Shown here in pieces: positions 14,054-55,958 of a stretch of DNA of 64,000 nt. This DNA is from Spirochaetota bacterium (GTDB lineage: Bacteria > Spirochaetota > UBA6919 > CBDBPB01): assembly GCA_965208615.1 (NCBI GenBank), contig CBDBPB010000002.1:64001-128000 (forward strand), written 5' to 3'. The position numbers were made by a program, and so were the translations under genes. Under the pieces are notes generated by a model. It searched no databases. It was not told where the DNA came from and saw nothing but the letters and a program-made list of their open reading frames with translations. Positions within the stretch are counted from its first letter, which is position 1, and each line of letters opens with the position of its first letter.

Positions 14054-14494
14054 TTATCGTCTTAAAATAGTCTTATTGATAATATTATCGGGATTAAGCT
14101 TGTTAAACTCTTCAACATTTTCACCAGGATATCCCCCAATAACCTCTACACCATTCTTTAAGGCAAAATGCTTATAACGTTCATCACTACCACCAGTTGG
14201 ACTACTCTGAGGATTATAAGTCCCTTGGGCTACATATACCTTCTTTTTTTTATTCTTAAAAGCATCATCAATACCCTCTTGAAGATCACTAAAGGCAGTA
14301 TTCCAGGATTTCCCATTTTTAGTAGTACGAGTTCCAGCTTTTACAAAAACTCCACCTAACAAAGCTTTAACAGGGTTATAAGGAGGAGTAGGATTTATTA
14401 CCTTACTAGCACCTTCCTCACAATCACCAGCTCTAAGCATGGAAATACTAATTAATAGTATTATTAAAATGTTTAAATAATTCTTTTTTGTCAT
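14054..14494 (-). pseudogene. Truncated Pmp-like beta-helix lipoprotein paralog (N-terminal domain only)
   Basis: Signal peptide near-identical to the neighbouring paralog, with VYVAQGTY and HFALKNGVEVIGG, but stops before any GGGMYN repeat. Confidence 0.75.
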
Positions 14495-14536
14495 AATTAA
14501 CTCACTAATTTTTATAAGATAACTCAAAGTAAACAA

Positions 14537-14726
14537 AAAACGACTTTTTGTTAAAAGCTATAGAATTAAAAATAAATTAACTTGTTCTATCACATATTAT
14601 AATGTTTATAGAAGGATAAGTCAAGTCTATTTATGCTATAACTGCTACTTATGCTACTTTGTTATAAAACCCATAAAAAAAGAGGAGCTATGCTCCCCTT
14701 AATTTTAACTGACTAAATAAATATAC
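14537..14726 (-). promoter_or_regulatory. Conserved paralog intergenic module: terminator (14675-14700) + sigma70 promoter TTGACT-N17-TATAAT (14596-14624)
   Basis: Near-identical to 54190-54427; partial copies at 26525-26666, 55802-55912 and 18716-18778. Confidence 0.8.
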
Positions 14727-16667
14727 TTAGTCGCCTGACTCACTTCTTGAGTCTTCATATTTATATGTATTACCAGCCTTGACAACCTTTCTATTACTTT
14801 TATCATCACCCGTTCCATAGGTTGCTTTGCCTTTTATGCTTGAATTATTATTATAAATAGCCCCGCCTTTGCCTTCTTTTTTATCTTCAATGCTACCAGC
14901 AATGTTTCCATTAAAAATCACATTACTAGTAAAAGTCACAGAGCTACCAATATTATACATGCCCCCTCCGTTATTAGAAGCCTTATTATTAGTAAAAGTC
15001 ACATCTGTTAACTTTGGAAACCCTGAAGCGTTATAATGATTATACATGCCCCCTCCAAGCTTAGCCTTATTTTCAGTAAAAGTCACATTTGTTAAAGTGG
15101 GCTTGCTATACCTCCAATTAATCATGCCCCCTCCAAAAATAGTAGCCGTATTGCCATTAAAAGTCACATTTGTTAACGTTGGAGAGCTATTCTCATTATT
15201 ATACATGCCCCCTCCGGACTGAGTAGCCGTATTGCCCTTAAAAGTCACAGTTGTTAAAGTGGGAGAGCTATTCTCATTATACATGCCCCCTCCAAACTTA
15301 GCCGTATTTTTAGTAAAAGTCACATCTTTTAATAACTTTGGAGAGCTCTTCGAATTATACATGCCCCCTCCGTTATTAGAAGCCTTATTATTAGTAAAAG
15401 TCACAGTTGTTAACTCTGGAGAGCTTTTATCATTATTATACATGCCCCCTCCGTTGCCCTGTATAATATCATCCGTTTTGGCCTTATTTTCAGTAAAAGT
15501 CACAGTTGTTAACGTTGGAGAGCTATTATTATTATACATGCCCCCTCCAAACTTAGCCGTATTTTTAGTAAAAGTCACATCTGTTAACTCTGGAGAGCTA
15601 TAATGATTATTATACATGCCCCCTCCATAATTAGCCGTATTGTCAGTAAAAGTCACATCTGTTAACTCTGGAGAGCTATAATAATTAAACATGCCCCCTC
15701 CTTGTTTGGCCGTATTGTCAGTAAAAGTCACAGTTGTTAACGTTGGAGAGCTAGTATTATTAAACATGCCCCCTCCGGACTGAGTAGCCTTATTTTCAGT
15801 AAAAGTCACATCTGTTAACGTTGGAGAGCTATTATTATTATACATGCCCCCTCCTTTATCTGTGGCCTTATTTTCAGTAAAAGTCACATCTGTTAACTCT
15901 GGAGAGCTATGATAATTATACATGCCCCCTCCTAAATCAGCCTTATTGTCAGTAAAAGTCACATCTGTTAACGTTGGAGAGCTATTATTATTATTATACA
16001 TGCCCCCTCCGTTATTAGTAGCCTTATTTTCAGTAAAAGTCACATCTGTTAACGTTGGAGAGCTCTTCTCATTATACATGCCCCCTCCTAAATTACGAGT
16101 ACCATTAGCATTGCCTTTGGTAATTATAACCCCTACTAACTTTGCAGTCTTATCTAGCTTTGCAGTAGCGGGATGATAAAAAACATTAAAGGCATCATCA
16201 CTATCATTGCCCTTTGTTCCAATATCACCGCTTAGGGTAGTCTTATGAGCTTTATGGTCATTACCCTCACCAACATTTTTACCAGGAAAACCCCCAATAA
16301 CCTCTACACCATTCCTTAATGAAAAATGCTTATGACGATCATTAGTACCTTTAGTTGGCTTACTAGTAGGCGTATAAGTCCCTTGGGCTACATATACCTT
16401 AACAGGTTTTTTAGTAGACTTAAACTTTTCTGAGGCTTTCTCAATACCCTCTTGTAGGTCACTATAAGCAGTTGTCCAAGATCTACCATTTTCAGTAGGA
16501 CGACGAGTTTTAGCTTCTTTTACAAAAACTCCTCCTACAGCACTTGGAATAGAGTTAGGAGAAGTAGGACTTATTACCTTACTAGCATCTTCCTCACAAC
16601 CAGCTCTAAGCATGGAAATACTAATTAATAGTATTATTAAAATGTTTAAATAACTTTTTTTTGTCAT
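14727..16667 (-). CDS. Pmp-like right-handed beta-helix repeat surface lipoprotein
   Basis: Signal peptide ending ..LRAGC; about 15 tandem 25-30 aa repeats GGGMYNxxSSPTLTDVTFTxNxA; start MTKKSY after a GGAG RBS. Confidence 0.85.
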   Translation of the reverse strand: MTKKSYLNILIILLISISMLRAGCEEDASKVISPTSPNSIPSAVGGVFVKEAKTRRPTENGRSWTTAYSDLQEGIEKASEKFKSTKKPVKVYVAQGTYTPTSKPTKGTNDRHKHFSLRNGVEVIGGFPGKNVGEGNDHKAHKTTLSGDIGTKGNDSDDAFNVFYHPATAKLDKTAKLVGVIITKGNANGTRNLGGGMYNEKSSPTLTDVTFTENKATNNGGGMYNNNNSSPTLTDVTFTDNKADLGGGMYNYHSSPELTDVTFTENKATDKGGGMYNNNSSPTLTDVTFTENKATQSGGGMFNNTSSPTLTTVTFTDNTAKQGGGMFNYYSSPELTDVTFTDNTANYGGGMYNNHYSSPELTDVTFTKNTAKFGGGMYNNNSSPTLTTVTFTENKAKTDDIIQGNGGGMYNNDKSSPELTTVTFTNNKASNNGGGMYNSKSSPKLLKDVTFTKNTAKFGGGMYNENSSPTLTTVTFKGNTATQSGGGMYNNENSSPTLTNVTFNGNTATIFGGGMINWRYSKPTLTNVTFTENKAKLGGGMYNHYNASGFPKLTDVTFTNNKASNNGGGMYNIGSSVTFTSNVIFNGNIAGSIEDKKEGKGGAIYNNNSSIKGKATYGTGDDKSNRKVVKAGNTYKYEDSRSESGD

Positions 16668-16683
16668 AATTAACTCCATAATT

Positions 16684-16752
16684 TTTATAAGATAATTTTA
16701 AATATAACTCAAATTAATAATTTGACTAAAATAAATAAATAAATAAATAAAT
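16684..16752 (-). promoter_or_regulatory. Putative sigma70 promoter TTGAGT-N17-TATAAA with an upstream (TAAA)6 tract
   Basis: -10 at 16684-16689, -35 at 16707-16712, AAAT x6 at 16729-16752. Confidence 0.5.
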
Positions 16753-16761
16753 TAAAGTTAT

Positions 16762-18660
16762 TATTACTAATTGCTCTAGTAGTGTAGTTCAAAAGTATTT
16801 TAAGTTAGTTTATCTTTTTAAAACTTTCTAAAATGCAGATAAAATTTATTTATTAATTGTGTTATAATAATTTTTTATCTAAAAGCTATAGTAATTAGTA
16901 ACAGGGAGTATATCTTTTATTTTTTATGGTTTAGTATAAGAGGCCCTTATCAAGTTGAGGTTGTTGACAATGGGGATAAGCGTTTACGTTTAGACTTTGA
17001 GTTAGGGCTGGCAGGTATATTTATTTTTCTGTTAAGGTTAGGGAGAGTATAGCTTTTTTTTAATATTATGTTATTTAAATGATAAGAGGCCCTTATCAAG
17101 TTGAGGTTGTTGACAATGGGGATAAGCGTTTACGTTTAGACTTTGAGTTAGGGCTGGCAGGTATATTTATTTTTCTGTTAAGGTTAGGGAGAGTATAGCT
17201 TTTTTTTAATATTATGTTATTTAAATGATAAGAGGCCCTTATCAAGTTGAGGTTGTTGACAATGGGGATAAGCGTTTACGTTTAGACTTTGAGTTAGGGC
17301 TGGCAGGTATATTTATTTTTCTGTTAAGGTTAGGGAGAGTATAGCTTTTTTTTAATATTATGTTATTTAAATGATAAGAGGCCCTTATCAAGTTGAGGTT
17401 GTTGACAATGGGGATAAGCGTTTACGTTTAGACTTTGAGTTAGGGCTGGCAGGTATATTTATTTTTTGTTAAGGTTAGGGAGAGTATAGCTTTTTTTTAA
17501 TATTATGTTATTTAAATGATAAGAGGCCCTTATCAAGTTGAGGTTGTTGACAATGGGGATAAGCGTTTACGTTTAGACTTTGAGTTAGGGCTGGCAGGTA
17601 TATTTATTTTTCTGTTAAGGTTAGGGAGAGTATAGCTTTTTTTTAATATTATGTTATTTAAATGATAAGAGGCCCTTATCAAGTTGAGGTTGTTGACAAT
17701 GGGGATAAGCGTTTACGTTTAGACTTTGAGTTAGGGCTGGCAGGTATATTTATTTTTCTGTTAAGGTTAGGGAGAGTATAGCTTTTTTTTTAATATTATG
17801 TTATTTAAATGATAAGAGGCCCTTATCAAGTTGAGGTTGTTGACAATGGGGATAAGCGTTTACGTTTAGACTTTGAGTTAGGGCTGGCAGGTATATTTAT
17901 TTTTTGTTAAGGTTAGGGAGAGTATAGCTTTTTTTTTAATATTATGTTATTTAAATGATAAGAGGCCCTTATCAAGTTGAGGTTGTTGACAATGGGGATA
18001 AGCGTTTACGTTTAGACTTTGAGTTAGGGCTGGCAGGTATATTTATTTTTTGTTAAGGTTAGGGAGAGTATAGCTTTTTTTTAATATTATGTTATTTAAA
18101 TGATAAGAGGCCCTTATCAAGTTGAGGTTGTTGACAATGGGGATAAGCGTTTACGTTTAGACTTTGAGTTAGGGCTGGCAGGTATATTTATTTTTCTGTT
18201 AAAGTTAAAGGGATATTATTTAATAATTCAGTTGTCATTTTATGACAAAGTTATGACGAGGGATACAAGGCAAAAGGAAGACATATAACGTAAAGGCAGA
18301 TAGATTTTAGATTCCTTTGTGGAACAGGAAAGTTAAGATATTCATGGAAAAGTTATTTTCCTATGTCAAGCAGGTTATCTCTACATGCTCTTTAAGTGCT
18401 GCTTAAATGCCTTAGTAATTAACACAAAATATCACTTTTTATGCAAGTAGTCATCATTACGGGAGCTATTAAGAATCCCTTACTGAGACTAAGGATTAGA
18501 GACCCTTATTAAGTGTTAACGGATTCGCCTTTCCATAAAGGCGTAGAGCAGATTATTTAAATATTACATGTTGACGTTATGTGTAAAACCTCGAAAAGTA
18601 TACCTAATCCTCTATGATAAATAACAATCATAAAAAGTAAACTACTAAAACCTTCACTAA
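16762..18660 (+). repeat. Dispersed non-coding element copy 2 (leader + tandem array + 304 nt core at 18281-18584)
   Basis: Homologous to copies 1, 3 and 4. Confidence 0.93.
16936..18202 (+). repeat. Tandem array of ~146 bp units (8 full + 1 partial)
   Basis: Unit starts at 16936, 17082, 17228, 17374, 17519, 17665, 17812, 17958 and 18103; units differ only by 1 bp indels in T-runs. Confidence 0.97.
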
Positions 18661-18783
18661 CAAAATCGCCCGATAAAACCTTTTTTGTTATATTTGCTAA
18701 AACGTTTGTTAACGCCTATAACTGCTACTTATGCTACTTTGTTATAAAACTCGTAAAAAAATGCTCCTCTTGATTTTAGAAAG

Positions 18784-19035
18784 CTAATTATAAATAAATA
18801 GACTTATGGTGTTTGCTTTGGAATTGGTCAAATGGTTGACTCTACAAGTTTCTTTGTTATCAGCAATGTTTTTATTAAAACTCACATTTGTTAACTCTTG
18901 AGAGCTAACATTATTATACATGCTCCCTTTGCTATTATAAGATTCTGAATCAGAACTAGCATCGCCTTTCATAATTATAACAGCCTCTAACTTTGCAGTT
19001 TTATCTTTAGGGTGAACAAAAACTATGATAGGCAT
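18784..19035 (-). pseudogene. Degenerate relic of a Pmp-like beta-helix gene
   Basis: DKTAKLEAVIIMKG, GSMYNNVSSQELTNVSFNKNIA fragments; followed by a damaged copy of the paralog terminator module at 18716-18778. Confidence 0.75.
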
Positions 19036-19384
19036 TATTACTAGCTTAAATATAACCCCTTAGAATGGCCTTATGGGTAGTAGTATAGTTAAACTCACCA
19101 ACCTGTCCACCTTTATAACCATAAATAACTACTTTCTAAAAAAAACTTACTACTCCGATTTAAGTTTTTTTATATAAAATCCCCTATTATGGAACTTTTT
19201 TACCATACTTATCGGTTTATTACTATAGTTGTTCTTTAATTTAATATTATAAATTATTATTTTACACTTCTTGTGACAGACTCCTGTGATATATAAATCT
19301 CTTTATAGTTGTATAATGGATTAAATTATTGTTTTTTATTTAATAAACTTTAGATGATCTACTTATAAATATTTTGGAGGTATT

Positions 19385-20639
19385 ATGCCTAACAATAAAC
19401 CTATTTTAGTAGTTGGTGGCGGTATAAGCGGTATGACATCTGCTTTAGAGGCTGCTGAGGTAGGGTATGAGGTTATTATTATAGAGAGCTCTCCTTATTT
19501 TGGTGGGCGGGTATCTCAGATGAATAAGTACTTTCCTAAGTTATGTCCCCCTTACTGTGGGTTAGAGATTAACTTTAGGCGGATTAAGACTAATCCTAGA
19601 ATAACTTATTATACTACGGCTCAGATAAAGGCTATATCTGGTGAGGCTGGTAGTTTTAAGGTGGATGTTAATATTAGCCCTAGGTATGTTAACAATAAGT
19701 GTACGGCGTGTGATGAATGTGTTAAAGTTTGTCCTGTAGAGAGAAAAGACGATTATAATATGGCTATGACTAATAACAAGGCTATTTATATGAGTCATAA
19801 GATGGCTTTTCCTGCTAAGTATGCTATTGACTCTGATGTTTGTAAGTTTAGCGAGTGTAATAAGTGTGTTGATGTTTGTAAGTATGACGCTATCGATTTT
19901 GGTATGCAGTCTAAGACCATATCTTTGGATATATCATCTATTATATATGCCACTGGATGGCGTCCTTATGATGCCACTAAGATGGATAATTTAGGTTTTG
20001 GGCAATATGAAAATATAATAACCAATATTATGATGGAGAGGTTAGCGGCTTCTAATGGTCCTACTGGTGGTAAGGTTGTTAGACCATCTGATGGCAAAGA
20101 GGCTAAAAATGTGGTATTTGTACAATGTGCTGGATCAAGGGATGAAAATCACCTGCCTTATTGTTCATCTATTTGTTGTATGGCGTCTTTAAAGCAGTCC
20201 ACCTTTGTGAGAGAGCAGTATGAGGATTCTAAGGTACATATTTTTTATATAGATTTGAGGACTCCGGGTAAGTATGAGAAGTTTTTATCCAAGATAAGGG
20301 ATGATGAGAATATTAGTTTTACTAAGGGCAAGGTAGCAAAGGTCAGTGAGGATAGTAAAACCAAAAACATAATTGTAGAGGCTGAGGATACCATTGCTAT
20401 GAAAAAGGTTAAGGTTGAGGCTGACTTAGTGGTATTGGCAACTGGGATGGAGCCATCATCTTTGAGTTGTGATTTACCTAGTGAGGTTAAGGTTAATGAC
20501 ATAGGGTTTATGTCGGCTGAGCTTCAGGGTCCTGGTATATATGCTGTTGGTGTTGGAAAGCAGCCTGTTGATGTTATGACGTCTGTACAGGATTGCAACT
20601 GGTGGTGCACTAAAGGCTATTCAGACTATAAGGAGTTAA
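19385..20639 (+). CDS. qmoA: QmoA (HdrA-like flavoprotein); one apparent +1 frameshift near 20593
   Basis: VVGGGISG, YFPKLCPPYCG, VQCAGSRDENHLPYCSSICC. Removing one T restores DATGGALKAIQ and a stop at 20639. Confidence 0.88.
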
Positions 20640-20641
20640 CT

Positions 20642-24061: not shown

Positions 24062-24575
24062 TATTAGGCTATTTGTAAAGAGGATCTAGTAGTTTACTTT
24101 TTATGATTGTTATTTATCATAGAGGATTAGGTATACTTTTTTGAAGTTTTACATATAAAGTCAATATGTAATATTTGAATAATCCGCTCTACGCCTTTAT
24201 GGAACTACAAATCCGTTAACACTTAATAAAGGTCTCTAATCCTTAGTCTCAGTAAGGGATTCTTAATAGCTCTCGAAGTGATGACTACTTGCATAAAAAG
24301 TGATATTTTGTGTTCATTACTAAGGCATTTAAGCAGCACTTAAAGAGCATAGAGGGATAACCTGCTTGATACAAGAAAATAACTTTTTCATAAATATCTT
24401 AACTTTCCTGTTCCACAAAGGAATCTAAAATCTATCTGCCTTTACGTTATATGTCTTCCTTTTGCCTTGTATCCCTCGTCATAACTCTGTCATAAAATGA
24501 TAACTAAATTATTAAATAATATCCCCTAAATAAACTAATATCAAAAAAGAAAAGCCATGCTCCCCTTAGCCTTAA
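24062..24575 (-). repeat. Dispersed non-coding element copy 3 (304 nt core at 24151-24454, only a fragment of the unit)
   Basis: Reverse complement of ~18210-18660 at high identity. Confidence 0.93.
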
Positions 24576-24748: not shown

Positions 24749-26524
24749 ATGCTAAAAACTAAGAGTTATTTGAAACTTTTAACAACACTATTAATTAGTT
24801 TATCACTATTTAGCTGTGATAATAATGCGGTTAATGAGGCATTAGGTGATAAAAATACCAGTGCCATAAAAACTGCAAAGGTAAAAGAAGATAAATCTAC
24901 TATAAAGGGTTATATACTAGGGGGAGTGCATGTAAGAGCTAATGCAAATGCTGGAGGTGATGGATCAACTTGGCAAAAAGCTTTTAATGACCTTCAAAAG
25001 GCTATTGATAAAGCTAAAAAAGATGGGGGCATAGTATATGTTGCTCAAGGGACTTATAAGCCTAATAGCCATCCCAACGGCGGTAGCGGGGAACGTAATA
25101 AACATTTTGCCTTACGAAATAATGTAGTAGTCATTGGGGGATATACCACTAACCGCGATAAACGGGATAAGGATCCTACTAAGACTATTTTAACTGGTGA
25201 TCTTGGTAATACAAGGGTACTTAATGTTTTTTATAATAAGGGTTTAAATAAAACTTCAAAGTTGAAGTACTTTACTATTACTAAGGGCAAGGCTGATGGT
25301 GCTAATAAGGGCAGTGGAGGGGGTATGTATAATGATAATAGCTCTCCAAGTTTGATAAGCATTAACTTTGAGGGTAATGAGGCTAAAAATAGTGGTGGAG
25401 CTATTTATAACAGTAATAGCACTTCAAATTTAATAAGCGTTAATTTTAAGGATAATAATGCTAAAAACGGTGGGGCAATGTATAATGCTAATAAAAGCTC
25501 TCCAAAGATAGTCAATTCTAGGTTTAATAATAATACGGCTGAAGATGGAGGGGGCATGTATAATGATAATAGTTCTCCAAAGTTAATGTACAGTTATTTT
25601 ACTGGTAATAAATCTATCAGTAATAACTGGCAAATAGGAGATGGAGGAGGGGGCATGTATAATAATAATAGTAAACCTATTTTATTAGGCATTAGTTTTA
25701 CTAATAATACGGCTAAATATAGGGGAGGGGGCATGTATAATTATAGTAATAGCTCTCCCACTTTAATAGATGTGGAGTTTAATAGTAATACGGCTAGAAA
25801 GAATGGAGGGGGCATGGCTAATGGTAATAGCTCTCCCACTTTAACAAATGTGAAGTTTACTAATAATACGGCTACATATTACGGAGGGGGCATGTATAAT
25901 ACTAATAGCTCTCCCACTTTAGAAAATGTGACTTTTAATAGCAATTCGGCCACATGGGGAGGGGGCATGCATAATTGGAAAAGCTCTCCCACTTTAACAA
26001 ATGTGAAGTTTAATAGCAATTCGGCCCCATGGGGAGGGGGCATGTATAATACTAATAGCTCTCCCACTTTAGAAAATGTGACTTTTGAGAGTAATACGGC
26101 TACATATTACGGAGGGGGCATGTATAATACTAATAGCTCTCCCACTTTAAAAAATGTGAAGTTTAATAGCAATTCGGCCCCATGGGGAGGGGGCATGTAT
26201 AATACTAATAGCTCTCCCACTTTAGAAAATGTGACTTTTGAGAGTAATACGGCTACATATTACGGAGGGGGCATGGTTAATTATAATAATAGCTCTCCCA
26301 CTTTAGATAATACGGTGATTTTTAATAAAAACATTGCTGGTAGTGTTGCTAATAGCCAAATAGGCGAAGGCGGGGCTATTTATAATGTTGTTGGTTCTAG
26401 ATATGGTCCTGACTCAAGAATAATAGGCACACCAACCTATGGAACGGGTGATGATGAAAATAAAAAGGTTATCAAAGTGGATAATACATATAAACTTGTA
26501 AAGTCAAACCTTGAGTCAGGCTAA
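24749..26524 (+). CDS. Pmp-like beta-helix repeat surface lipoprotein
   Basis: Lipobox LFSC; VYVAQGTY domain; multiple GGGMYN..SSPTL repeats; GGAIYN C-terminal cap. Confidence 0.87.
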   Translation: MLKTKSYLKLLTTLLISLSLFSCDNNAVNEALGDKNTSAIKTAKVKEDKSTIKGYILGGVHVRANANAGGDGSTWQKAFNDLQKAIDKAKKDGGIVYVAQGTYKPNSHPNGGSGERNKHFALRNNVVVIGGYTTNRDKRDKDPTKTILTGDLGNTRVLNVFYNKGLNKTSKLKYFTITKGKADGANKGSGGGMYNDNSSPSLISINFEGNEAKNSGGAIYNSNSTSNLISVNFKDNNAKNGGAMYNANKSSPKIVNSRFNNNTAEDGGGMYNDNSSPKLMYSYFTGNKSISNNWQIGDGGGGMYNNNSKPILLGISFTNNTAKYRGGGMYNYSNSSPTLIDVEFNSNTARKNGGGMANGNSSPTLTNVKFTNNTATYYGGGMYNTNSSPTLENVTFNSNSATWGGGMHNWKSSPTLTNVKFNSNSAPWGGGMYNTNSSPTLENVTFESNTATYYGGGMYNTNSSPTLKNVKFNSNSAPWGGGMYNTNSSPTLENVTFESNTATYYGGGMVNYNNSSPTLDNTVIFNKNIAGSVANSQIGEGGAIYNVVGSRYGPDSRIIGTPTYGTGDDENKKVIKVDNTYKLVKSNLESG

Positions 26525-26555
26525 TAAGTATATTTATTTAGTCAGTTAAAATTAA

Positions 26556-26579
26556 GGGGAGCATAGCTCCTCTTTTTTT
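26556..26579 (+). terminator. Rho-independent terminator of the paralog module
   Basis: GGGGAGC-ATA-GCTCCTC followed by T7. Confidence 0.75.
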
Positions 26580-26620
26580 ATGGTTTTTATAACAAAGTAG
26601 CAGTTATAGCATAAATAGAC

Positions 26621-26649: not shown

Positions 26650-27112
26650 ATGTGATAGAACAAGTTATGCTATTAGTTGTTCTAATAGTGTAGATTAAAC
26701 TAAGCTAACTTATATTTCTAAAACTTCCTAAAATCTATTTGGCAATAGTCTTAGAATAACTTATCTAAAAGCTAGAATAATTAGTAACTCTAATCCACTA
26801 AAATGACTCATAAGACTTCTTTTATAATCAAATTATCATAGAACGTCATATTAGTCTATTTGCCCGTACAAAAAAATATAGATTAAAATACCTATACTAC
26901 AGCAATATTAAAAAGTTTAATAACATTATTCTTCTGGTCTTATACTAACTTTTTTATAAAAACTCTTTACTATATATAATACTTATACTATATTATTAAT
27001 ATGCAATATAAATGAACAATAAATATAATATAAAAGTATTTATTGTCAAGGTGAATTTTACTCATATTAAGATATATTGTAAAAATTAAACTATTTTATT
27101 AAGGAGGCTTAT

Positions 27113-27622
27113 ATGAAAAAGCTTAACAGAAGAGGTTTTTTAAAGTTAAGCTCTGGAGTTGCAGGAGCTGTTATAGTTAGTACATCTTGCGGTAATAGTG
27201 GTAGTATTGCTGATAGTTCTAATAAAAGTAGTAGTTCTTTCCCTACAAATACTATAGCCCAGTTAAAGGAGCTTAAAGTCGGAAAACCAAAGGATTTTAA
27301 CTATCCTGATAAGAATTCCCCATGTATTTTAATCAAGTTAGGTAATAGTGCTTTGGGTGGGGTTGGTCCTGATAAAGATGTTGTGGCATTTAGTAAATTA
27401 TGTTCTCATATGGGATGTCCTGTACTTTATGATAGTAAAAAAGCTGTATTAAAATGTGGTTGTCACTTTAGTATTTTTGATCCTGGGGTAGCTGGTCAGC
27501 AAGTATGTGGTCAGGCTACTGAAAAACTGCCACAAGTTGTACTTGATTATGACTCTAAAAGTGGTGCTATTAGTGCTACTGGTATGAATGGTATAGTTTA
27601 TGGCAGACAAAGTAATATTTAA
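27113..27622 (+). CDS. aioB: Arsenite oxidase small (Rieske) subunit
   Basis: Tat signal RRGFLK; FNYPDKNSPC, GGVGPD, CSHMGC, CGCHFS, GQQVCGQATEKLP. Confidence 0.92.
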   Translation: MKKLNRRGFLKLSSGVAGAVIVSTSCGNSGSIADSSNKSSSSFPTNTIAQLKELKVGKPKDFNYPDKNSPCILIKLGNSALGGVGPDKDVVAFSKLCSHMGCPVLYDSKKAVLKCGCHFSIFDPGVAGQQVCGQATEKLPQVVLDYDSKSGAISATGMNGIVYGRQSNI

Positions 27623-27637
27623 TAAGGAGGAAATTAT

Positions 27638-30097
27638 ATGAATGCTAAAAGAATACCTTTACCCCCTAAAGGGACTAAACCTAGTAATTTAACTTGTCAT
27701 TTTTGTATAGTTGGTTGTGGATATAGGGTATATAAATGGCCTATAAGTAGAGAGGGAGGTCCTAGTAAGGGTGATAATGCTCTAGGACTTGATTTTACAA
27801 AGCCATTAGTGGCACAAGAGATAACTTTAACCTCTTCTATGGTTAACGAGATACAGGATAATAACGGCAGAAAGTATAATATAATGATTATTCCTGATAA
27901 AAAATGTGTTGTAAATGAGGGCTTATCATCTACTAGAGGTGGAGCTTTGGCTAGCTTAATGTATAACAGTGCTTCTCCTACTAGTAATCGTTTAAAATAT
28001 CCATCAATATTTACTGGAGATAGCTGGTCTGATACTAATTGGGATTATGCTTTAGATTTGTATGCCGCTCTTACAAAGAAGATATTGGATAATGATGGAC
28101 CTGATCAGATATTTTTTAATGCTTTTGATCACGGTGGAGCAGGCGGTGGCTTTGAGAATACTTATGCTAGTGGAAAGTTAATGTTTTCGTCTATAAAGAC
28201 TAAGATGGTACGAATACATAATAGGCCTGCATATAACTCTGAGTGTCACGGTAGTCGTGATATGGGGATTGGTGAGTTGAACAACAGTTATGAAGATGCT
28301 CAACTTGCGGATACTATATTTTGTATAGGGGCTAACCCTTATGAAACACAAACTAATTACTTTTTAGCACATTGGTTAGCCAACTTTAGGGGAGCTAGTT
28401 TAGATAAGAAAAAGAAACGTTTTCCAGATGAAACCGTTGATAGCGCTAGGGTTATATTTGTTGATCCAAGGCGTAGTCCGACTATTGCTATTAGTGAGCA
28501 GATTGTGGGTAAGGATAAGGTTTTACATTTGGACATAAATCCTGGTACTGATATAGCTTTATTTAATGGTCTTTTTACTTATGTGGTTGATAAGGGTTGG
28601 CATGACAAGGAATTCATATCTAAACATACTAGCGGTTTTGACTCTTCATTGGCTAGTAATAGGATTTCTTTGGATGAGTGTAGTAAAATTACTGGGGTTA
28701 GTAAGGATAAGATTATTAAGGCGGCAGAGTGGGCTTATAAGTCTAAAAAGTCTGGTCATAGACCGCGAACAATGCATGCTTATGAAAAAGGTATTATATG
28801 GGGTAATGATAATTATCATATACAGGTGTCATTAGTGGATCTTGTATTGGCTACTCATAATGTGGGACGTCGTGGTACTGGGGTTGTTAGATTAGGCGGA
28901 CATCAAGAGGGATATGCTAGACCTCCATATCCGGGTCCTCGTCCTGCTCCGTATATAGATAAAGAAATTATCAATGGTAATGGTAAGATGCTTACTGTTT
29001 GGGCGTGTAATTCGTTGCAGACAACTTGTAATGCGGATACTTATAAAAAAGCAATATTAAAAAGGTCTAATATAGTTAGGGATGCTCTATCTAGGTTAAC
29101 TGCACCGTCTTTAAATAAGGTGGTAGATACCATATATAGTGCTATTAACAGAGGTGGACTTTTTATTACTACTATTGATATTTATCCTACTAAGTTTGCT
29201 GAAGTTGGACATCTTGTTATGCCGGGTGCTCATCCTGGTGAAATGAATTTAACATCCATGAATGGTGAAAGAAGAATGCGTCTTTCTGAGCGATTTATGG
29301 ATCCTCCTGGTCTTGCTAAACCTGACTGTCTTATAGCGGCAGATATTGCTAATAAAATTAAGGCCTTATATGCTAAAGAAGGTAATAATGAAATGGCTGA
29401 TCGCTTTTCTGACTTTGACTGGAAGACAGAAGAAGATGTATTTAATGCTGGATTTAGAAAACCAAAAGGTATAGATAGTCAGGGGGGTGGAACAGGTAAT
29501 ATAGCTAGTTATGAGCGTCTTAAGGCTATGGGTAATGACGGTGTTCAGTTGCCAATTAAGGAATATAAGGATGGTAAGCTAGTTGGAACAGAAATGATTT
29601 ATTCTGATTATAAGTTTTCTACCAAAGATGGTAAGGCTCATTTTATGAGTTCTCCTTGGAAGGGATTACATCCTACTGTAGCTAAACAAAAGAAAAAGTA
29701 TAACTTTTGGATAAACAATGGTCGTAATAATCAGATATGGCAGAGTGCTTATCATGATAGGTATATGGAGTTTAGAAAAAACCGTTATCCTATGGCGCCT
29801 GTTGAGATTAATCCTGTTGATGCTAAAAAGCTCAATATAAAAAGTAGTGATATAGTTGAGATATATAATGATTTTGGTTCAACTTATGCTATGGCATATT
29901 TAGAAGAGGATATAAAGCAGGGTCATGTATTTATGATGTTTGCATATCATAATGGTACAGCCGGGGATATTACCACTGATGCTGTTGATGAGAATATTGT
30001 CCCTTATTATAAAGGTACATGGGCAAACATTCGTAGGTTTGGTACTATGGCTGAATATGAAAAAACTGTTAGTTTTAAGTCGAGAAGATATAGTTAG
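27638..30097 (+). CDS. aioA: Arsenite oxidase large molybdopterin subunit
   Basis: [60 protein letters not shown]. Confidence 0.93.
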
Positions 30098-30167: not shown

Positions 30168-31082
30168 CTATTGTTTATGAGCTACGTGGGTAAAATGCTC
30201 TGTTACACCACTAGTTTGTGCAGTCCATGTTATACCATCGGTTGATGCTATAATTGTTCCGGCATTTCCTACAGCAACCCATTTATTATTATAATAAGTG
30301 ATACCATTAATTTGGTTTGTTATACCACTAACTATACTGCTCCAGGTTGTTCCATTGGATGATCCTATTAAGGTTCCATCAGCTCCGCCAGCAATCCACT
30401 TGTTACCATAAGCAATGCTATGTAGTTGTTTTGATGTACCACTAGTTAGGTTAGACCAGCTAGTTCCATTAGTTGATGTTATCATAGCACCATACCATCC
30501 AGCGGCAACCCATTTGCTATTACCATAGGCTACTGCAAAAAAATTAGTTAGTGAACCAATTTGTTGTGTCCATGTTGTTCCATCAGATGAAGTTTTAAGC
30601 ATTGTTGCATTTCCAACCACAACCCATTTATCGCCATAGGCTAATTCATAAAGTATATTTACACCCTGATTTTGTGAAGACCATGTTGTTCCATCACTTG
30701 ATGTTAGAATGATGCCAGCATTACCCACAGAGACCCATTGGTTATTAGCATAACTTATGTTGTGAAGAGTCTCTGTTGTACCACTGGTTACTGGACTCCA
30801 TGTAACTCCATCAGTTGATGTTAGCATTAGCCCTGTATTTCCAACAGCAATCCATTTACCATTGCCATAGGCTATACTTATAATATTTTTAATTGTGTTA
30901 GAGTTTTGTGATGTCCATTTAGACCCGTCAACTGATGTTGTAATAGTACCATTATTACCTACAGCAGTCCAAAATATCTCTTCAGTACTGTTTCCTGTAA
31001 CTGACTCAGATACATTATCACCACATGCCATTATAAACAAAAACATGCCTATCATAGCCATCAAAATAACTTTTGATTTCAT
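30168..31082 (-). CDS. Lipoprotein with BNR/beta-propeller-like repeats
   Basis: Lipobox IMAC; seven ~39 aa repeats W.AVG..G.I.TS.DGTTW. Confidence 0.8.
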   Translation of the reverse strand: MKSKVILMAMIGMFLFIMACGDNVSESVTGNSTEEIFWTAVGNNGTITTSVDGSKWTSQNSNTIKNIISIAYGNGKWIAVGNTGLMLTSTDGVTWSPVTSGTTETLHNISYANNQWVSVGNAGIILTSSDGTTWSSQNQGVNILYELAYGDKWVVVGNATMLKTSSDGTTWTQQIGSLTNFFAVAYGNSKWVAAGWYGAMITSTNGTSWSNLTSGTSKQLHSIAYGNKWIAGGADGTLIGSSNGTTWSSIVSGITNQINGITYYNNKWVAVGNAGTIIASTDGITWTAQTSGVTEHFTHVAHKQ

Positions 31083-49874: not shown

Positions 49875-49900
49875 TTTTATAATTTGTAGACATATTATAG

Positions 49901-50150
49901 TTTTTACTCATAGGGGATTAGGCATACTTTTTTTAGATTTACTGTGTGTTATCAAAGGTATTACTATGCTATTGTAAAGAGGTTTTGCTAGTTTACTTTT
50001 TATAATTGTTGTTTATTTATAGGGGATTAGGCATACTTTTTTTAGATTTACTGTGTGTTATCAAAGGTATTACTATGCTATTGTAAAGAGGTTTTGCTAG
50101 TTTACTTTTTATAATTGTTGTTTACTCATAGGGGATTAGGTATACTTTTT
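49901..50150. repeat. Tandem repeat, 109 bp period, ~2.3 copies
   Basis: TAGGGGATTAGG at 49911, 50020 and 50129. Confidence 0.9.
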
Positions 50151-50532
50151 TGAAGTTTTACACATAACGTCAATATCTAATATTTAAATAATCCGCTCTA
50201 CACCTTTATGGAACTGCAAATCCGTTAACACTTAATAAGGGTCTATAATCCTTAGTCTCAGTAAGGGATTCTTAATAGCTCCCGTAATGATGACTACTTG
50301 CATAAAAAGTGATATTTTGTGTTAATTACTAAGGCATTTAAACAGCACTTAAAGAGCATATAGGGATAACCTGCTTGACACAGGAAAATAACTTTTCCAT
50401 AAATATTTTAACTTTCCTGTTCCACAAAGAGATATAAAATACATCTGCCTTTACGTTATATGTCTTGCTTTTTACCTTGTAGACTTTGTCATAACTATGT
50501 CATAAAATGACAACTGAATTATTAAATAATAT

Positions 50533-51374
50533 CCCTTTAGCCTTAACAAAAAATAAATATACTTACTCGTCTGACTTAAAGTCTAAGCGTACAAGTTTAT
50601 ATGCATGTCTATTTTCAACAACCTAAACTTGATGGAGTATCCGTTATACTAAACCATAAAAAAGAAAAACTATATTCCCTTTAACCTCAACAAAAAATAA
50701 ATATACCTACCAGCCCTAACTCAAGGTCTGAGCGTACAAGTTTATATGCATGTCTATTGTCAACAACCTAAACTTGATAGAGTGCCTGTTATACTAAACC
50801 ATAAAAAAGAAAAACTATATTCCCCTTAGCCTCAACAAAAAATAAATATACTTACTCGCCTGACTTAAAGTCTAAGCGTACAAGTTTATATGCATGTCTA
50901 TTGTCAACAACCTAAACTTGATGAAGTATCCGTTATACTAAACCATAAAAAAGAAAAACTATATTCCCCTTAGCCTCAACAAAAAATAAATATACTTACT
51001 CGCCTGACTTAAAGTCTAAGCGTACAAGTTTATATGCATGTCTATTGTCAACAACCTAAACTTGATGAAGTATCCGTTATACTAAACCATAAAAAAGAAA
51101 AACTATATTCCCCTTAGCCTTAACAAAAAATAAATATACTTACCCGCCTGACTTAAAGTCTAAGCGTACAAGTTTATATGCATGTCTATTGCCAACAACC
51201 TAAACTTGATGGAGTGCCTGTTATACTAAACCATAAAAAAGAAAAGCTATATTCCCCTTAGCCTTAACAAAAAATAAATATACTTACTCGCCTGACTCAA
51301 GGTCTGAGCGTACAAGTTTATATGCATGTCTATTGTCAACAACCTAAACTTGATGAAGTATCCGTTATACTAAA
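50533..51374 (-). repeat. Tandem array of ~144 bp units (about 6 copies, with substitutions between units)
   Basis: AACAAAAAA(A)TAAATATAC at 50545, 50689, 50834, 50978, 51122 and 51266. Confidence 0.96.
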
Positions 51375-51396
51375 TTATCACATATTATGTATAGGT

Positions 51397-54189
51397 ATGG
51401 CAATTGGGAATATTAAAACCTCTTATTAAAATATAGCTATCCCCTTTGAAATAGGTTTAAGTACTTTTTCAGGATGCGGAGAGGATGATATATCCTGTGA
51501 GGCTCTGGGTGATTGTGATAAAAATGTTGAAAGTCAGCTAGAGAAAGCAAAAGATGAGGTTACAGCTGCAAATAAAGAGGTTAACGATGCAAAGAAAGAG
51601 GTTAAAAAGGATAAAAAATTAACGCCTGAAGAATTAGAAGAAGCAAGAAAAAAATTAGAAGAAGCAAGAAAAAAATTAGAAGAAGCAGAAAAAAGATTAA
51701 AAGAAGCAAAAAAGATATTAGAAAAGCTAGAAGATATGTTCCTTAAGGTTTGCAAGGTAACAAGAACTACGGATGCTTATATTAACGCTGTTACTTGTAA
51801 TAAGACTCTCGAGGATAAGTGTAATGGTGAGTGGGATTCACAAGACTGTATAGCGTCTCTTGGTACGGCAATTGGGGTATGTAGAGTAGAAAAAGATACA
51901 ACTACTCGTACTGACGTTGTTACTTGTAATACGATGGTTCAAAGTGAGTGTGATGACAAACTAGGTGAGTGGGGCTTGCAAAGCTGTACTACAAATCCTG
52001 GTACTAAAAGGCTAAAAGCAGTGCCAGAAGCAATATGCAAGGTAATTAGAGATACAGCTTCTCATGCTAATGTAGTTACTTGTAATACAATGGTTCAAAG
52101 TGAGTGTAGTAAAAGTAAAAGAAAAGGTAATTGGAATCCACAAATCTGTAATCCAGATATTGGTACGCCAATAAGTAAAACCTGTAAGATAATAAAAGAT
52201 TCGGATACTCATACTGATGTTGTTACTTGTCAGACTACTACTAAGGCTGATTGTCCAAGTCCAAGTGTGTGGGATCCAAAAACCTGTATTCCGTCTATTG
52301 GTAATACATGTAAGATAACAGAAAATACGGATAGTCATACCGGCGTTGTTACTTGTAAAAAAACTACTAAGGATGATTGTCAAGGTGAGGGGCGTGCGTG
52401 GGGTCTACTAGCCTGTACTGAGTCTATTGGTACTCCAATAACTAAGACATGCAAAGTGGAAAAAGATACGGATAGTCATACCGGCGTTGTTACTTGTGAT
52501 AAAACTACTAAAACTCAGTGTGATACTGATAAGGGTACCTGGGACCCACCAAGCTGTGAGCCGTCTGATGGTACAAAAAGGCAAACACCAGTGGAAGAAA
52601 AGGTTTGTAAGATAACAAAAGATACGGATACTCATACAGGCGTTGTTACTTGCGATAAGAATATTAAGACTGAGTGTGATACTAAACAAGGTGAGTGGGA
52701 TCCACAAACCTGTACTCCGTTTACTGGTCAGCCCAAGACTAAGATTTGTAAGATAACAACAGAGACGTATACTCATACAGGCGTTGTTACTTGTGATACA
52801 ACTACTAAGGCTCAGTGTGATACTGATAATGGTGATTGGGACTCACAAAGCTGTACTACAAATCCTGGTACGCCTAAGACTAAGGTTTGCAAGATAACAG
52901 AAAATACGCCTACTCGTAGAGGTGTTGTTACTTGTGATACAGCTACTAAAACTCAGTGTGATACTGATAAGGGTGAGTGGGGCTTAAAAAGTTGTACTCC
53001 ATCTAAGGGTAAGGCAATTAAGGTTTGTAAGATAACAACAGAGACGCCTAGTCATACAGGCGTTGTTACTTGTGAGAAAACTACTAAAACTAAGTGTGAT
53101 ACTAAACATGGTGAGTGGGACTCAACAAACTGTACTCCGTCTGCTGGTACGCCCATACCAAATGGTACGCCCATACCACCTGGGGTTGTTTTTGTAAAAG
53201 CTGGAACTCGTACTACTAAAAATGGGAAATCCTGGAATACTGCTTATAGTGATCTTCAAAAAGGTATTGAGGAAGCCTCAGAAAAGTTTAAGTCTACTAA
53301 AAAACCTGTTAAGGTATATGTAGCCCAAGGGACTTATAAGCCTCAGAGTAGGCCAAATGGTGGTACTAGTGATCGTCATAACCATTTTTCATTAAGGAAT
53401 GGTGTAGAGGTTATTGGGGGTTTTCCTGGTCTAATTACTGGTGAGTCTAATAATCCTAACTACTATAAGACTGTCCTAAGCGGTGATATCAGAAGAGTGG
53501 GCGATGATAGTGATAACGCCTATCATGTTTTTTATCATCCAGCTACTGCAAAGCTAGATAACACTGCAAAGTTAGTAGGGGTTATAATTACCAAAGGCAA
53601 TACTAATACTAGTAGTAATTCCCATAGTTCTGGAGGAGGCATGTTTAATTATGAGAGCTCTCCAACGTTAACAAATGTGGAGTTTAATAGTAATACGGCA
53701 TCATACGGAGGGGGCATGGATAATACTAGTAGTAGCTCTCCAACGTTAACAAATGTGGAGTTTAATAGTAATACGGCATCATACGGAGGGGGCATGTTTA
53801 ATTTTAATAATAGCTCTCCAACGTTAAAAGATGTGACTTTTACTAGTAATACGGCTACTTATAGAGGAGGGGGCATGTATAATTATAATGAGAGCTCTCC
53901 CACTTTAACAAATGTGACTTTTACTAGTAATACGGCTAATAGGTACGGAGGGGGCATGGTTAATTGGGGTAATAGCAAGCCCACTTTAGATAATACGGTG
54001 ATTTTTAATAAAAACATTGCTGGTAGTGTTGCTAATAGCCAAATAGGCAAAGGCGGGGCTATTTATAATTATTCCTCAAGCATAACAGGCACACCAACCT
54101 ATGGAACGGGTACTAATGAAAATAAAAAGGTTGTCAAAAATAATAATGGCACATATAAACTTATAAAGTCAAACCTTGACTCAGACTAA
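51397..54189 (+). pseudogene. Pmp-like beta-helix lipoprotein with coiled coil and 10 Cys-rich repeats; in-frame TAA at codon 11 (51427-51429)
   Basis: MAIGNIKTSY*NIAIPFEIGLSTFSGC, then an open frame through to 54189; the listed ORF at 51736 starts at an internal Met. Confidence 0.7.
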
Positions 54190-54427
54190 TAAGTATATTT
54201 ATTTAGTCCGTTAAAATTAAGGGGAGTATAGCTCCTCTTTTTTTTATGGTTTTTATAACAAAGTAGCATAAATAGCAGTTATAGCATAGATAGACTTGAC
54301 TTATCCTTCTATAAATATTATCCTATGTGATAGAACAAGTTAATTTACTTTTAATTCTATAGTTTTTAATAAAAAGTTGTTTTTTGTTTAGTTTGAGTTA
54401 TCTTATAAAAAAACAAGGAATTAAGTT
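54190..54427 (+). promoter_or_regulatory. Paralog intergenic module: terminator (54221-54245) + promoter variant TTGACT-N17-TATCCT (54296-54324)
   Basis: Near-identical to 14537-14726 except at the -10 box. Confidence 0.75.
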
Positions 54428-55801
54428 ATGACAAAAAAGAATTATTTAAACATTTTAATAATACTATTAATTAGTATTTCGTTAGTTAGGGGCAAGTGCG
54501 ATTCCGATAAGGTAATAAGTCCTCCTTCTGATGGTACAGAAAGGCCAGAACCAGTGGAAGAAAAGGTTTGTAAGATAACAACAGATACGGATACTCGTAG
54601 AGGTGTTGTTACTTGTGAAAAGAATACTACTAATTGTCAAGGTGAGTGGGTCGTAGGATGTCGTCCATCTAACGGTATACTTATTCCAAAAGCTCAAAAA
54701 GATCAAATTTTTGTAAAAGCTTTAAACCAAGATGAAAGGCGCTCTAATGAAGATGGAAAGTCCTGGACAACTGCCTTTAGTGATCTTCAAAAAGGTATTA
54801 AGTATGCTTTTGAGAATAATAAAAAGATGGTATATGTAGCCCAAGGGACTTATAAGCCTACTAGTTATCCAAATGGTGGTAGTGGTGATGATCGTTATAA
54901 GCATTTTTCATTAAGGAATGGTATAGAGGTTATTGGAGGCTTTCCCGGTGAAAAGCTTGATGAGCCTAATAATCCTGAGCAATATGAGACTATTCTAAGC
55001 GGTGATATTGGAACTAAAGATGATAGAGATAACGTCTATCATGTTTTTTATCATCCTGATGGTACAAACCTAAATAACTCAGCAAAGCTAGCTGGGGTTA
55101 CAATTACCCAAGGCTATGCTTATTTTGCGTCTCCTGATGTTAATGAGCCTCGTAAGTTAGGAGGGGGCATGTATAATTTTAAGAGCTCTCCAACGTTAAC
55201 AACTGTGACTTTTCGTAATAATACGGCTAGAGATGGAGGGGGCATGTATAATTTTAAGAGCTCTCCAACGTTAACAGGTGTGGCTTTTACTGAAAATACG
55301 GCTATTACCGGAGGGGGCATGCGTAATTATAAGGATAGCTCCCCAACGTTAAAAGATGTGACTTTTACTAAAAATGAGGCTACTGTTAACGGAGGGGGCA
55401 TGCATAATTGGGATAATAGCTCTCCAAAGTTAACAGATGTGACTTTTACTAAGAATAAGGCTACTATTAACGGAGGGGGCGGCATGTATAATTATTATTA
55501 TAGCTCCCCAAAGTTAACAGGTGTGACTTTTAATAGTAATACGGCTAGTAGGTACGGAGGGGGCATGTTTAATTTTGTTGGTTGCTCTCCAGAGTTCATA
55601 AGTAATGTGGTTTTTAATAAAAACATTGTTGGTAGTGTTGGTAGTGACCTAATAAGCTACGGCGGGGCTATTTATAATAGTAAGACTTCAGCCATAACAG
55701 GCACTCCAACCTATGGAACGGGTGATGATGAAAATAAAAAGGTTGTCAAAAATACAGATGGCACATATAGTTTTGTAAAGTCAAACAGTTGGCCATGGTA
55801 A
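54428..55801 (+). CDS. Pmp-like beta-helix lipoprotein with one Cys-rich repeat
   Basis: MTKKNYLNILIILLISIS signal, VCKITTDTDTRRGVVTC, VYVAQGTY, six GGGM repeats. Confidence 0.87.
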   Translation: MTKKNYLNILIILLISISLVRGKCDSDKVISPPSDGTERPEPVEEKVCKITTDTDTRRGVVTCEKNTTNCQGEWVVGCRPSNGILIPKAQKDQIFVKALNQDERRSNEDGKSWTTAFSDLQKGIKYAFENNKKMVYVAQGTYKPTSYPNGGSGDDRYKHFSLRNGIEVIGGFPGEKLDEPNNPEQYETILSGDIGTKDDRDNVYHVFYHPDGTNLNNSAKLAGVTITQGYAYFASPDVNEPRKLGGGMYNFKSSPTLTTVTFRNNTARDGGGMYNFKSSPTLTGVAFTENTAITGGGMRNYKDSSPTLKDVTFTKNEATVNGGGMHNWDNSSPKLTDVTFTKNKATINGGGGMYNYYYSSPKLTGVTFNSNTASRYGGGMFNFVGCSPEFISNVVFNKNIVGSVGSDLISYGGAIYNSKTSAITGTPTYGTGDDENKKVVKNTDGTYSFVKSNSWPW

Positions 55802-55832
55802 TAAGTATATTTATTTAGTCCGTTAAAATTAA

Positions 55833-55857
55833 GGGGAGCATAGCTCCTCTTTTTTTT
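55833..55857 (+). terminator. Rho-independent terminator of the paralog module
   Basis: GGGGAGC-ATA-GCTCCTC followed by a T-run. Confidence 0.75.
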
Positions 55858-55958
55858 ATGGTTTTTATAACAAAGTAGCATAAATAGCAGTTATAGCATA
55901 GATAGACTTGACTATATATTTAATTTTGATATATATTTTTATAGTGCATAGAAGACTA

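Follow-up and report, generated by a model that had tools for sequence, protein, structure and literature searches.

A MITE-like non-coding element with Mu/B3-like phage ends as a probable origin of the repeats upstream of PMP-repeat lipoprotein genes in a Spirochaetota genome

Introduction

Correia elements and Neisseria intergenic mosaic elements (NIMEs) are intergenic mosaic repeats of about 100 to 300 nucleotides (nt) with insertion-sequence-like ends that lie near surface-protein genes of Neisseria, and the plant Pack-MULEs are non-autonomous elements that carry captured fragments of host genes between their ends. In Drosophila virilis, the foldback transposon Tetris seeded a satellite, according to an excerpt of its published description (PMC4079207), while B3/Tn552-type transposable prophages have a 6-base-pair (bp) repeat and TG-CA ends, as stated in an excerpt of PMC8705779. 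Here, we analyze a 64,000-nt stretch of a Spirochaetota bacterium genome (assembly GCA_965208615.1, contig CBDBPB010000002.1, positions 64,001 to 128,000; hereafter, the window), in which three loci, A, B and C, share one order of parts: a non-coding core of about 380 nt, a tandem array (8.7 units, none and 5.8 units, respectively), and a lipoprotein gene with repeats of the polymorphic membrane protein (PMP) type. A preliminary description of this DNA had taken these parts for a cassette system that diversifies surface proteins. We consider it more probable, at roughly 60%, that the core and the array belong to a non-coding mobile element resembling a miniature inverted-repeat transposable element (MITE), with ends like those of Mu/B3-like phages, that was duplicated together with the PMP genes, and that no dedicated switching is involved. 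Throughout the text, coordinates without a prefix are window positions, a C-number followed by a colon denotes one of the nine contigs of the genome assembly (completeness 99.4%; the window is C2:64001-128000), C1 and C2 without a colon are genes at locus C, and K-numbers denote individual copies of the core or the element.

Results

Copies, boundaries and ends of the element

Window positions 18205-18597 match 24138-24530 (393 nt, 93% identity) and 50147-50472 (326 nt, 93%), both inverted with respect to locus A. A BLAST search of the whole genome retrieved 46 copies of this core of at least 150 nt, spread over seven of the nine contigs at 70-100% identity, and the core consensus contains stop codons in all six frames, leaving it no coding capacity. 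An end motif, GTTANNNANNGTTYTAG, occurs 91 times in the genome versus about 1.8 times expected; it is co-oriented with the core at its 5' side, often twice at a distance of about 52 nt, and inverted 590-880 nt downstream. Complete single-unit copies of the element extend over 649-746 nt, with TG at one terminus and CA at the other, and are bounded by terminal inverted repeats, each of which holds two GTTYTA-containing sub-sites. In at least 10 copies whose left flanks are unrelated, homology sets in sharply at the left TG terminus. The right terminus is often found 55-215 nt from the start codon of the downstream gene. The following copies and fragments are present in the window:

3555..4269, minus strand: element copy K09, 5' of the MscS gene at 2160-3410(-); core at 3883-4269, right end at 3555-3629 (profile match C2:67557-67629, E 4.8e-14)
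16762..18714, minus strand: element copy K10 (1,953 nt), 5' of gene A1, comprising a doubled left end, the core, the 8.7-unit array and a right end (end-profile matches)
18640..18714, minus strand: K10 left end, in which a phage-end-like repeat occurs twice at a spacing of 52 nt (profile C2:82714-82640, E 6.3e-21; motifs at C2:82697 and C2:82645)
18205..18600, minus strand: core of K10, the conserved non-coding centre of about 380 nt (46 genome copies; no Rfam family)
16762..16836, plus strand: right end of K10, inward-reading (nhmmer right-end profile C2:80764-80836, E 1.4e-14)
24081..24525, plus strand: core copy K11, 5' of gene B (BLAST 93% over query 48-491; no end-motif match, no array)
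50089..50553, plus strand: core copy K12 (BLAST 91.6% over query 48-509)
49903..50151, plus strand: degenerate left part of K12, duplicated as 109 nt x 2.3 (Tandem Repeats Finder, TRF; weak left-end matches at C2:113947 and C2:114056)
26669..26731, plus strand: stray right-end-like fragment 3' of the gene B tail (nhmmer right-end profile, E 9.2e-5)

The outer left terminus of K10 reads CG in place of TG, and 83 nt separate the right terminus of K10 from the start codon of A1 downstream. K11 and K12 have neither an outer left end nor a right end before the gene, and the outer left end is missing from most PMP-adjacent copies. K09 stands upstream of the MscS gene, exactly as the preliminary description had it, and such a setting is common: about 38 core copies adjoin genes unrelated to the PMP family, and the genes downstream of cores are varied, as judged by their N-terminal sequences (lipoproteins and gyrA-, cysS-, clp- and GDP-mannose-dehydratase-like genes). 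In 15 of the 46 copies, the core faces a convergent gene.

The core had also been called structured, a term that the folding analysis did not bear out. The whole window gave no match to Rfam at the gathering threshold, and at E<=10 window positions 16600-19400 yielded two chance-level rows and nothing more. On either strand, the 450-column consensus folded weakly with RNAalifold, at about -22 kcal/mol, and the z-scores of single sequences were -1.9 and -1.4. A 525-nt query made of the left end and the core likewise found no match among 50,697 phage records searched in distant mode.

A resident prophage with similar ends

One core copy is split into two parts, K42 (query 1-306, C7:424521-424829) and K43 (query 300-496, C7:460178-460376). 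Between them lie 35.3 kilobases (kb) of DNA (C7:424830-460177) that start with TG, end with CA and are flanked on both sides by the same six letters, i.e., a 6-bp duplication. The two 54-nt terminal inverted repeats of this segment share 94% identity. Among its gene products are a transposase of 532 amino acids (phrog_310, E 3.4e-35), which has an ATPase partner of 282 amino acids, a transposition protein (phrog_296, E 1.8e-26), GemA, a cI-like repressor and baseplate proteins; the Pfam rve match to the transposase is weak (E 7.5e-5, below the cut-off). On sequence evidence, C7:424830-460177 is a complete Mu/B3-like transposable prophage, in which ends, target duplication, transposase genes and structural genes are all present.

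A profile built from nine left ends of the element matched both prophage termini from profile position 1-2 onward (nhmmer, E 3.3e-6 and 4e-5), and these two termini were its best matches outside the element itself. The same profile also matched the end of a second, related prophage at C7:139129 (E 2.1e-4). When three prophage ends, seven element left ends and two element right ends were aligned, 17 columns turned out to be invariant across all 12 sequences, including the two GTTYTA sub-sites at matching spacing. Matches to phrog_310 are confined to contigs C7 and C3 and represent the sole transposase type found in the genome; no multi-copy family of transposase open reading frames (ORFs) was found there, and this 99.4%-complete genome holds no reverse transcriptase (RVT_1, PF00078, without match) and gave no insertion-sequence transposase in searches with rve, DDE_Tnp_1 and Y1_Tnp, none of which had a match. 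From the similarity of the ends and from the prophage transposase being the only type in the genome, we infer that the element is, or once was, mobilized in trans.

Two further segments are related to this prophage. C3:10639-15823 is a 5.2-kb stretch, 98.5% identical to the prophage early region, in which the transposase and ATPase frames are intact but phage ends are missing, perhaps a partial duplication or an artefact of the assembly. From C7:139129 to about 171000 extends the second, diverged prophage relative (70-92% identity in pieces), with one recognizable end and no phrog_310 match, which holds a non-coding array of 358 nt x 3.4 at 162651-163850.

Tandem arrays and their repeat unit

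With TRF, 66 arrays with a period of at least 40 and a span of at least 150 were found in the genome, 26 of them non-coding, i.e., without overlap with an ORF of at least 150 amino acids. Eighteen of these 26 start at most 150 nt from the 3' end of a core, while the other eight comprise two at the 5' side of a core, three repeats of broken PMP genes and three unrelated ones. The arrays that follow the cores at loci A and C are listed below; locus B has none:

16936..18207, minus strand: locus A array, 8.7 units x 146 nt, 99% matches (TRF); every unit reads as the reverse-complemented 3' end of a PMP gene
50532..51374, plus strand: locus C array, 5.8 units x 144 nt, 93%, inverted homologs of the PMP tail (TRF; register; alignment)

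By BLAST, unit positions 73-140 are about 78% identical, over 71-72 nt, to window positions 54260-54190 (E 2.7e-7) and 26594-26525 (E 3.3e-6), and the reverse complement of the unit aligns with the last ~55 nt of the PMP coding sequence, the stop codon and the terminator hairpin. The locus A unit is composed correspondingly: about 55 nt of coding sequence, a stop and a decayed terminator. At loci K08 and K21, the units keep up to about 200 nt of PMP 3' coding sequence, and tblastn found four inverted matches between the K08 units and the PMP C-terminus (E 6.7e-5). The unit is an internal segment of the element that originated as a PMP gene 3' end and is inverted relative to the downstream gene. 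Since the tail belongs to the conserved C-terminus of the family, the transfer ran from gene to repeat. The longest identity between the units and the tail of their own gene amounts to 12-15 bases at most.

Across the genome, the array periods range from 74 to 403 nt, and a small set of modules recurs in the units, namely the PMP tail in inverted orientation, a spacer and the right end. Those of K15 and K46 start inside the core, at a short stretch resembling part of the tail module. K18 and K20 carry 15 and 12 near-identical tandem units of 74 nt (C4:91068-92178 and C4:131028-131917, respectively), and every one of these units amounts to an entire right end, including its two phage-end-like sub-sites. 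Sequencing depth over the locus A unit was 28.9 versus 3.2 in unique sequence, which corresponds to about nine copies and agrees with the assembly, in the one sequencing run found to contain the locus (0.71 of its sequence words), taken as contigs, where rare variants are invisible; no RNA run containing it was listed. A joint 16906>18205 in that run carries 33 letters typical of other element copies and is therefore not an empty site. We infer that the arrays are products of unequal recombination within modular sequence.

The PMP-repeat genes and their surroundings

Chlam_PMP / POMP repeats were recognized by Pfam and TIGRFAM models in the genes at 14727-16679(-), 24749-26524(+) and 54428-55801(+), with E values of 1.4e-28, 2.3e-13 and 2.8e-6 for PF02415, and the window PMP-family proteins have lipoprotein-signal-like N-termini. 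The gene C1 product, 51736-54189(+), has no family match, yet it falls within the same paralog cluster as the other PMP genes. The window PMP-family proteins end in a short conserved tail, and no C-terminal autotransporter beta-barrel was present among the Pfam matches of the five window paralogs. The genes and the sequences attached to them are as follows:

14727..16679, minus strand: PMP-repeat lipoprotein gene A1, 650 amino acids, lipobox-like ...RAGC (PF02415 E 1.4e-28; TIGR01376 E 1.7e-34)
14509..14726, minus strand: inter-paralog module of locus A, with an intrinsic terminator at 14680-14700 followed by a strong promoter-like site at 14596-14624 (11/12 match)
14054..14536, minus strand: second paralog A2, a truncated PMP-family member of 160 amino acids (inverted matches to 53311-53475 and 54729-54888; paralog cluster)
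18784..19035, minus strand: PMP-like gene remnant of 83 amino acids just beyond the K10 left end (member of repeat family D8 at 18890-18979; tail-like sequence at the element boundary)
24749..26524, plus strand: PMP-repeat lipoprotein gene B, 591 amino acids, ...LFSC lipobox (PF02415 E 2.3e-13)
26525..26618, plus strand: native 3' flank (tail) of gene B with a terminator hairpin (sequence, alignment)
51736..54189, plus strand: PMP-family gene C1, 817 amino acids from the first ATG (paralog cluster)
54190..54427, plus strand: inter-paralog module of locus C, with tail, terminator and promoter-like site (sequence comparison)
54428..55801, plus strand: PMP-repeat gene C2, 457 amino acids (PF13229 E 7.2e-9; PF02415 E 2.8e-6)
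55802..55912, plus strand: tail of gene C2 (sequence)

The module between A1 and A2 (14509-14726) is 93.6% identical to 54193-54411 over 219 nt and 95.4% identical to C4:588376-588592. In window positions 14400-19400, a promoter scan gave 28 calls versus 21.2 +/- 4.3 in shuffled sequences, i.e., not above chance, and a terminator scan singled out the gene-tail terminator alone, with none called within the units. The descriptive part of the preliminary account was confirmed in part: the layout common to the three loci (cores 93% identical; 8.7, no and 5.8 units), the homolog of the unit as an inverted gene tail (a ~78% BLAST match that aligns with the coding-sequence end, stop and terminator) and the common module joining the second paralogs were all recovered. 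Its statement that the window holds no recombinase gene agrees with the 21 window ORFs scanned with Pfam, among which none was found; the remaining ORFs lay outside that scan and no search for serine recombinases was made. Two tyrosine recombinases are encoded in the genome, both outside the window (C4:85925 and C8:117172).

The reading frame of gene C1 is open 5' of its first ATG (window ~51431-51735) and there encodes a truncated lipobox-like ...FSGCGEDD, as in paralogs elsewhere, without a canonical start and without a signal-peptide N-region. The gene may be truncated at its 5' end, where it meets the element array, and the same junction recurs on contig C3 (K14). The N-terminal half of gene C1 (window 52325-53150) further contains a cysteine-rich tandem repeat of 141 nt (47 amino acids) in about 6-10 copies, with no family match.

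Other features of the region are recorded here for completeness. Directly 3' of locus B (27113-30097) lies a pair consisting of a Rieske subunit and a Rieske_3/molybdopterin oxidoreductase, similar to arsenite oxidase AioB/AioA, followed at 30168-31082 (-) by an ORF of 304 amino acids made of seven repeats of ~114-117 nt, with a weak beta-propeller match. On another contig, six tandem paralogous lipoprotein genes (305-325 amino acids; C1:264765-270918) are found just before core copy K05 (C1:271089). A tRNA/tmRNA scan of the window detected none.

Relationship between the PMP loci

The genome contains about 15 PMP loci, dispersed and some of them broken; upstream of seven of them lies a core in the same orientation, and at an eighth the core is convergent. 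When 38 cores were placed in a tree, two changes of the label 'PMP-adjacent' sufficed, compared with 7.5 in shuffles, none of 500 of which was as low, and seven of the eight PMP-adjacent cores fall into one clade of eight with 97% support. K12 and K14 are, in addition, alike in sequence past the array. Since the PMP-adjacent cores are essentially one clade, the association is best read as co-duplication of the gene with its upstream element, and the shared layout of the three window loci is best explained in the same way, though gene conversion among copies could blur this signal. Around the three cores, no conserved inverted repeats were found, only AT-rich, low-complexity chance pairs, and the genome showed neither an archive of silent cassettes nor a single expression site.

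Discussion

Taken together, these data suggest the following course of events. Each locus would consist of a PMP-repeat lipoprotein gene preceded by a mostly decayed non-coding transposable element of about 0.7 kb, of which the core is the conserved centre and the ends are putative homologs of the termini of the resident Mu/B3-like prophage. The prophage DDE transposase and its ATPase partner would have moved the element in trans, in the manner of an engineered mini-Mu, and unequal recombination may have amplified an inverted PMP-tail unit into near-identical arrays. Gene and upstream element were probably duplicated jointly during the expansion of the PMP family, the gene tail being, in all likelihood, the native 3' end of the family. 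Because the right terminus often lies 55-215 nt from a start codon, the element may also affect transcription of the downstream gene.

Several observations weigh against this interpretation. First, at the called termini of 10 complete copies, 23 of 60 flank positions matched versus 21.4 expected (p = 0.36), and a grid of alternative boundaries and lengths gave matches solely inside the ends of the element itself, so that no target-site duplication was seen. Under the Shapiro model, each copy made by intramolecular replicative transposition should have an old flank on one side and a new one on the other; the corresponding parent-daughter signature, a match of right flank to left flank between copies, was not significant, either as six-of-six matches (1 versus 0.71 expected) or as five-of-six (14 versus 9.2 expected, P = 0.09). 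Second, K18 and K20 have near-identical cores and different left ends, and such mosaics point to recombination among copies, which weakens what can be concluded from the core tree. Third, the resemblance to the prophage is limited: the ends share just 77-81% identity over 53-60 nt, the profiles of right ends and of variant-B left ends had no match to the prophage ends at E<1, the core did not match the prophage, and its local score with the intergenic region between repressor and early operon, the presumed operator, was 13 versus 13.4 in shuffles. Fourth, core DNA had no match in 40 relatives, all from outside the family of this genome, nor did an exact core 25-mer in genome, viral and metagenome contig collections, from which the window's own records were possibly excluded; as the element was found in no other genome, there is no empty site for comparison. 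Finally, the nearest downstream ORF is co-oriented with the core in 31 of the 46 copies (p = 0.026), and 7 of these 31 downstream genes encode a lipobox-like N-terminus, as do 110 of 1917 genes in the whole genome, which gives an odds ratio of 5 (p = 0.0014, obtained with a crude regular expression and ignoring the paralogy of genes). Co-orientation and lipoprotein enrichment leave room for a selected regulatory role.

One alternative, albeit an unlikely one, holds that the copies are immobile relics, either old scars of prophage ends or an ancient composite spread by segmental duplication and gene conversion, with no present activity. In its favor are the lack of target-site duplications, both in cis and between copies, the mosaics such as K18 and K20, whose left ends differ, the missing outer left end in most PMP-adjacent copies, and an identity to the window copy of 82-94%, so that the copies are not near-identical. 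What speaks for a mobile element instead is the spread of 46 copies over seven of nine contigs in unrelated intergenic contexts, the sharp start of homology at the TG terminus, seen in at least 10 copies whose left flanks are unrelated, the constant spacing of about 650-750 nt between paired inverted ends, and the existence of very close pairs at different loci (such as K17/K19 and K18/K20), at tree distances of about 0.01.

Improbable, in our opinion, is the proposal of the preliminary description, namely that the core, the inverted unit arrays and the gene tails together make up a cassette architecture serving to move, invert or tune the expression of variable surface lipoproteins, with array length or inversion setting that expression. 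It draws on the seven of ~15 PMP loci with a co-oriented core upstream, the 7 of 31 lipobox-like downstream genes versus 5.7% genome-wide, the co-orientation with the next gene in 31 of 46 copies, the closeness of right termini to start codons (often 55-215 nt or less) and the 93-100% identity within arrays of a locus, which implies recent turnover. The association with PMP genes is indeed not random, but most of the 46 copies lie elsewhere, about 38 of them beside unrelated genes, including gyrA-, cysS- and clp-like ones, and the PMP-adjacent cores are essentially a single clade. Unit and tail are only about 78% identical, with identical stretches of at most 12-15 bases. Stretches of this length fall below the need of RecA-type recombination. 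Moreover, no conserved inverted repeats surround the core, promoter calls did not exceed those in shuffles (28 vs 21.2 +/- 4.3), and the genome has no silent-cassette archive, no reverse transcriptase and only two tyrosine recombinases, both outside the window. Of the notion of a non-autonomous cassette, the non-autonomous part can be kept, given the missing coding capacity, the inverted repeats and the sharp termini, while the tie to PMP genes is lost with the ~38 copies found elsewhere. A dedicated system for switching or diversifying surface proteins is unsupported.

A bolder extension, which we regard as quite doubtful, would make the element a natural, phage-dependent 'mini-Mu' and have the host put its arrays, composed of phage-end and gene-tail modules, to new use, either as length-variable upstream regulators of lipoprotein genes or as transposase-titrating decoys that damp phage replication (with up to 15 tandem right ends, as in K18/K20). 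That the core encodes, in many copies, a structured non-coding RNA of large size, or that it acts as a common 5' leader, with arrays and ends being incidental, is very improbable: the central 375 nt are very highly conserved (many columns at 90% or more across 38 copies) and the core is directional relative to downstream genes, but recent common descent of the copies explains this conservation equally well, 15 of 46 copies face a convergent gene, Rfam offered no family at its gathering threshold and two chance-level rows at E<=10, and both the consensus fold (for each strand, about -22 kcal/mol across the 450 columns) and the z-scores (-1.9, -1.4) are weak.

Should the interpretation as a MITE-like element with Mu/B3-like ends be confirmed, the copies would constitute a family of non-autonomous elements that occurs naturally in a chromosome and relies on a transposable Mu/B3-like phage, and transposable phages would be able to seed MITE-like repeats. 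Such repeats would capture fragments of host genes, yield most of the non-coding tandem arrays of the genome and end up directly 5' of lipoprotein genes. We found no description of a natural MITE-like family with transposable-phage ends in the full-text literature, a search whose scope did not extend to subscription journals and supplementary files. The case also calls for caution, as flanking repeats shared by a surface-protein family need not signal switching; here, co-duplication with a resident mobile element accounts for the layout.

In comparison with known systems, the element resembles Correia elements and NIMEs in being non-coding, multi-copy and intergenic, with terminal inverted repeats, often near gene starts, and in having modules common to several loci and a placement beside surface-protein genes. 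It differs from them in its length of 650-750 nt, in ends that are transposable-phage-like rather than of the insertion-sequence type, in the lack of a detectable target-site duplication, and in that 18 copies carry long near-identical tandem arrays. With MITEs in general it has in common the inverted repeats at sharp boundaries, the absence of coding capacity and the many dispersed copies, but not a target-site duplication.

The likeness to the vlp/vsp genes of Borrelia hermsii and to vlsE lies in a family of surface lipoproteins with shared extragenic homology blocks 5' and 3' of the genes. Unlike in those systems, there is neither a single expression site nor a silent-cassette archive here, the blocks of homology stand in inverted orientation with an identity of only about 78%, and the upstream block also precedes housekeeping genes; unlike in cassette-based variation, a terminator and a promoter-like site are part of the inter-paralog module itself. 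The loci differ from an inverton, as no conserved inverted repeats flank the cores and two tyrosine recombinases are encoded elsewhere (serine recombinases were not searched), and from a diversity-generating retroelement, as the genome has no reverse transcriptase (0 matches to PF00078). The encoded proteins resemble chlamydial polymorphic membrane proteins in their GGx(I/M)xN and FxxN-type repeats and predicted right-handed beta-helix, and differ from them in having no autotransporter barrel match and lipoprotein-signal-like N-termini.

As in Pack-MULEs, a fragment of a host gene is carried between the ends of the element. As in Tetris (excerpt of PMC4079207), internal transposon segments have been amplified into tandem arrays. 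Both of these are eukaryotic and use unrelated transposases, so that the comparison is an analogy only. From mini-Mu, the element is set apart as a natural multi-copy chromosomal family, where the excerpt of PMC8705779 mentions engineered minis only, and by ends that have diverged from those of the resident prophage (77-81% identity), and its mobilization is a putative one. What it shares with engineered mini-Mu and mini-D3112 and with B3/Mu-like prophages, as far as the same excerpt describes them (PMC8705779), are the TG...CA termini and the multi-site ends, and its putative helper prophage encodes a DDE transposase and an ATPase and shows a 6-bp duplication of the B3/Tn552 type.

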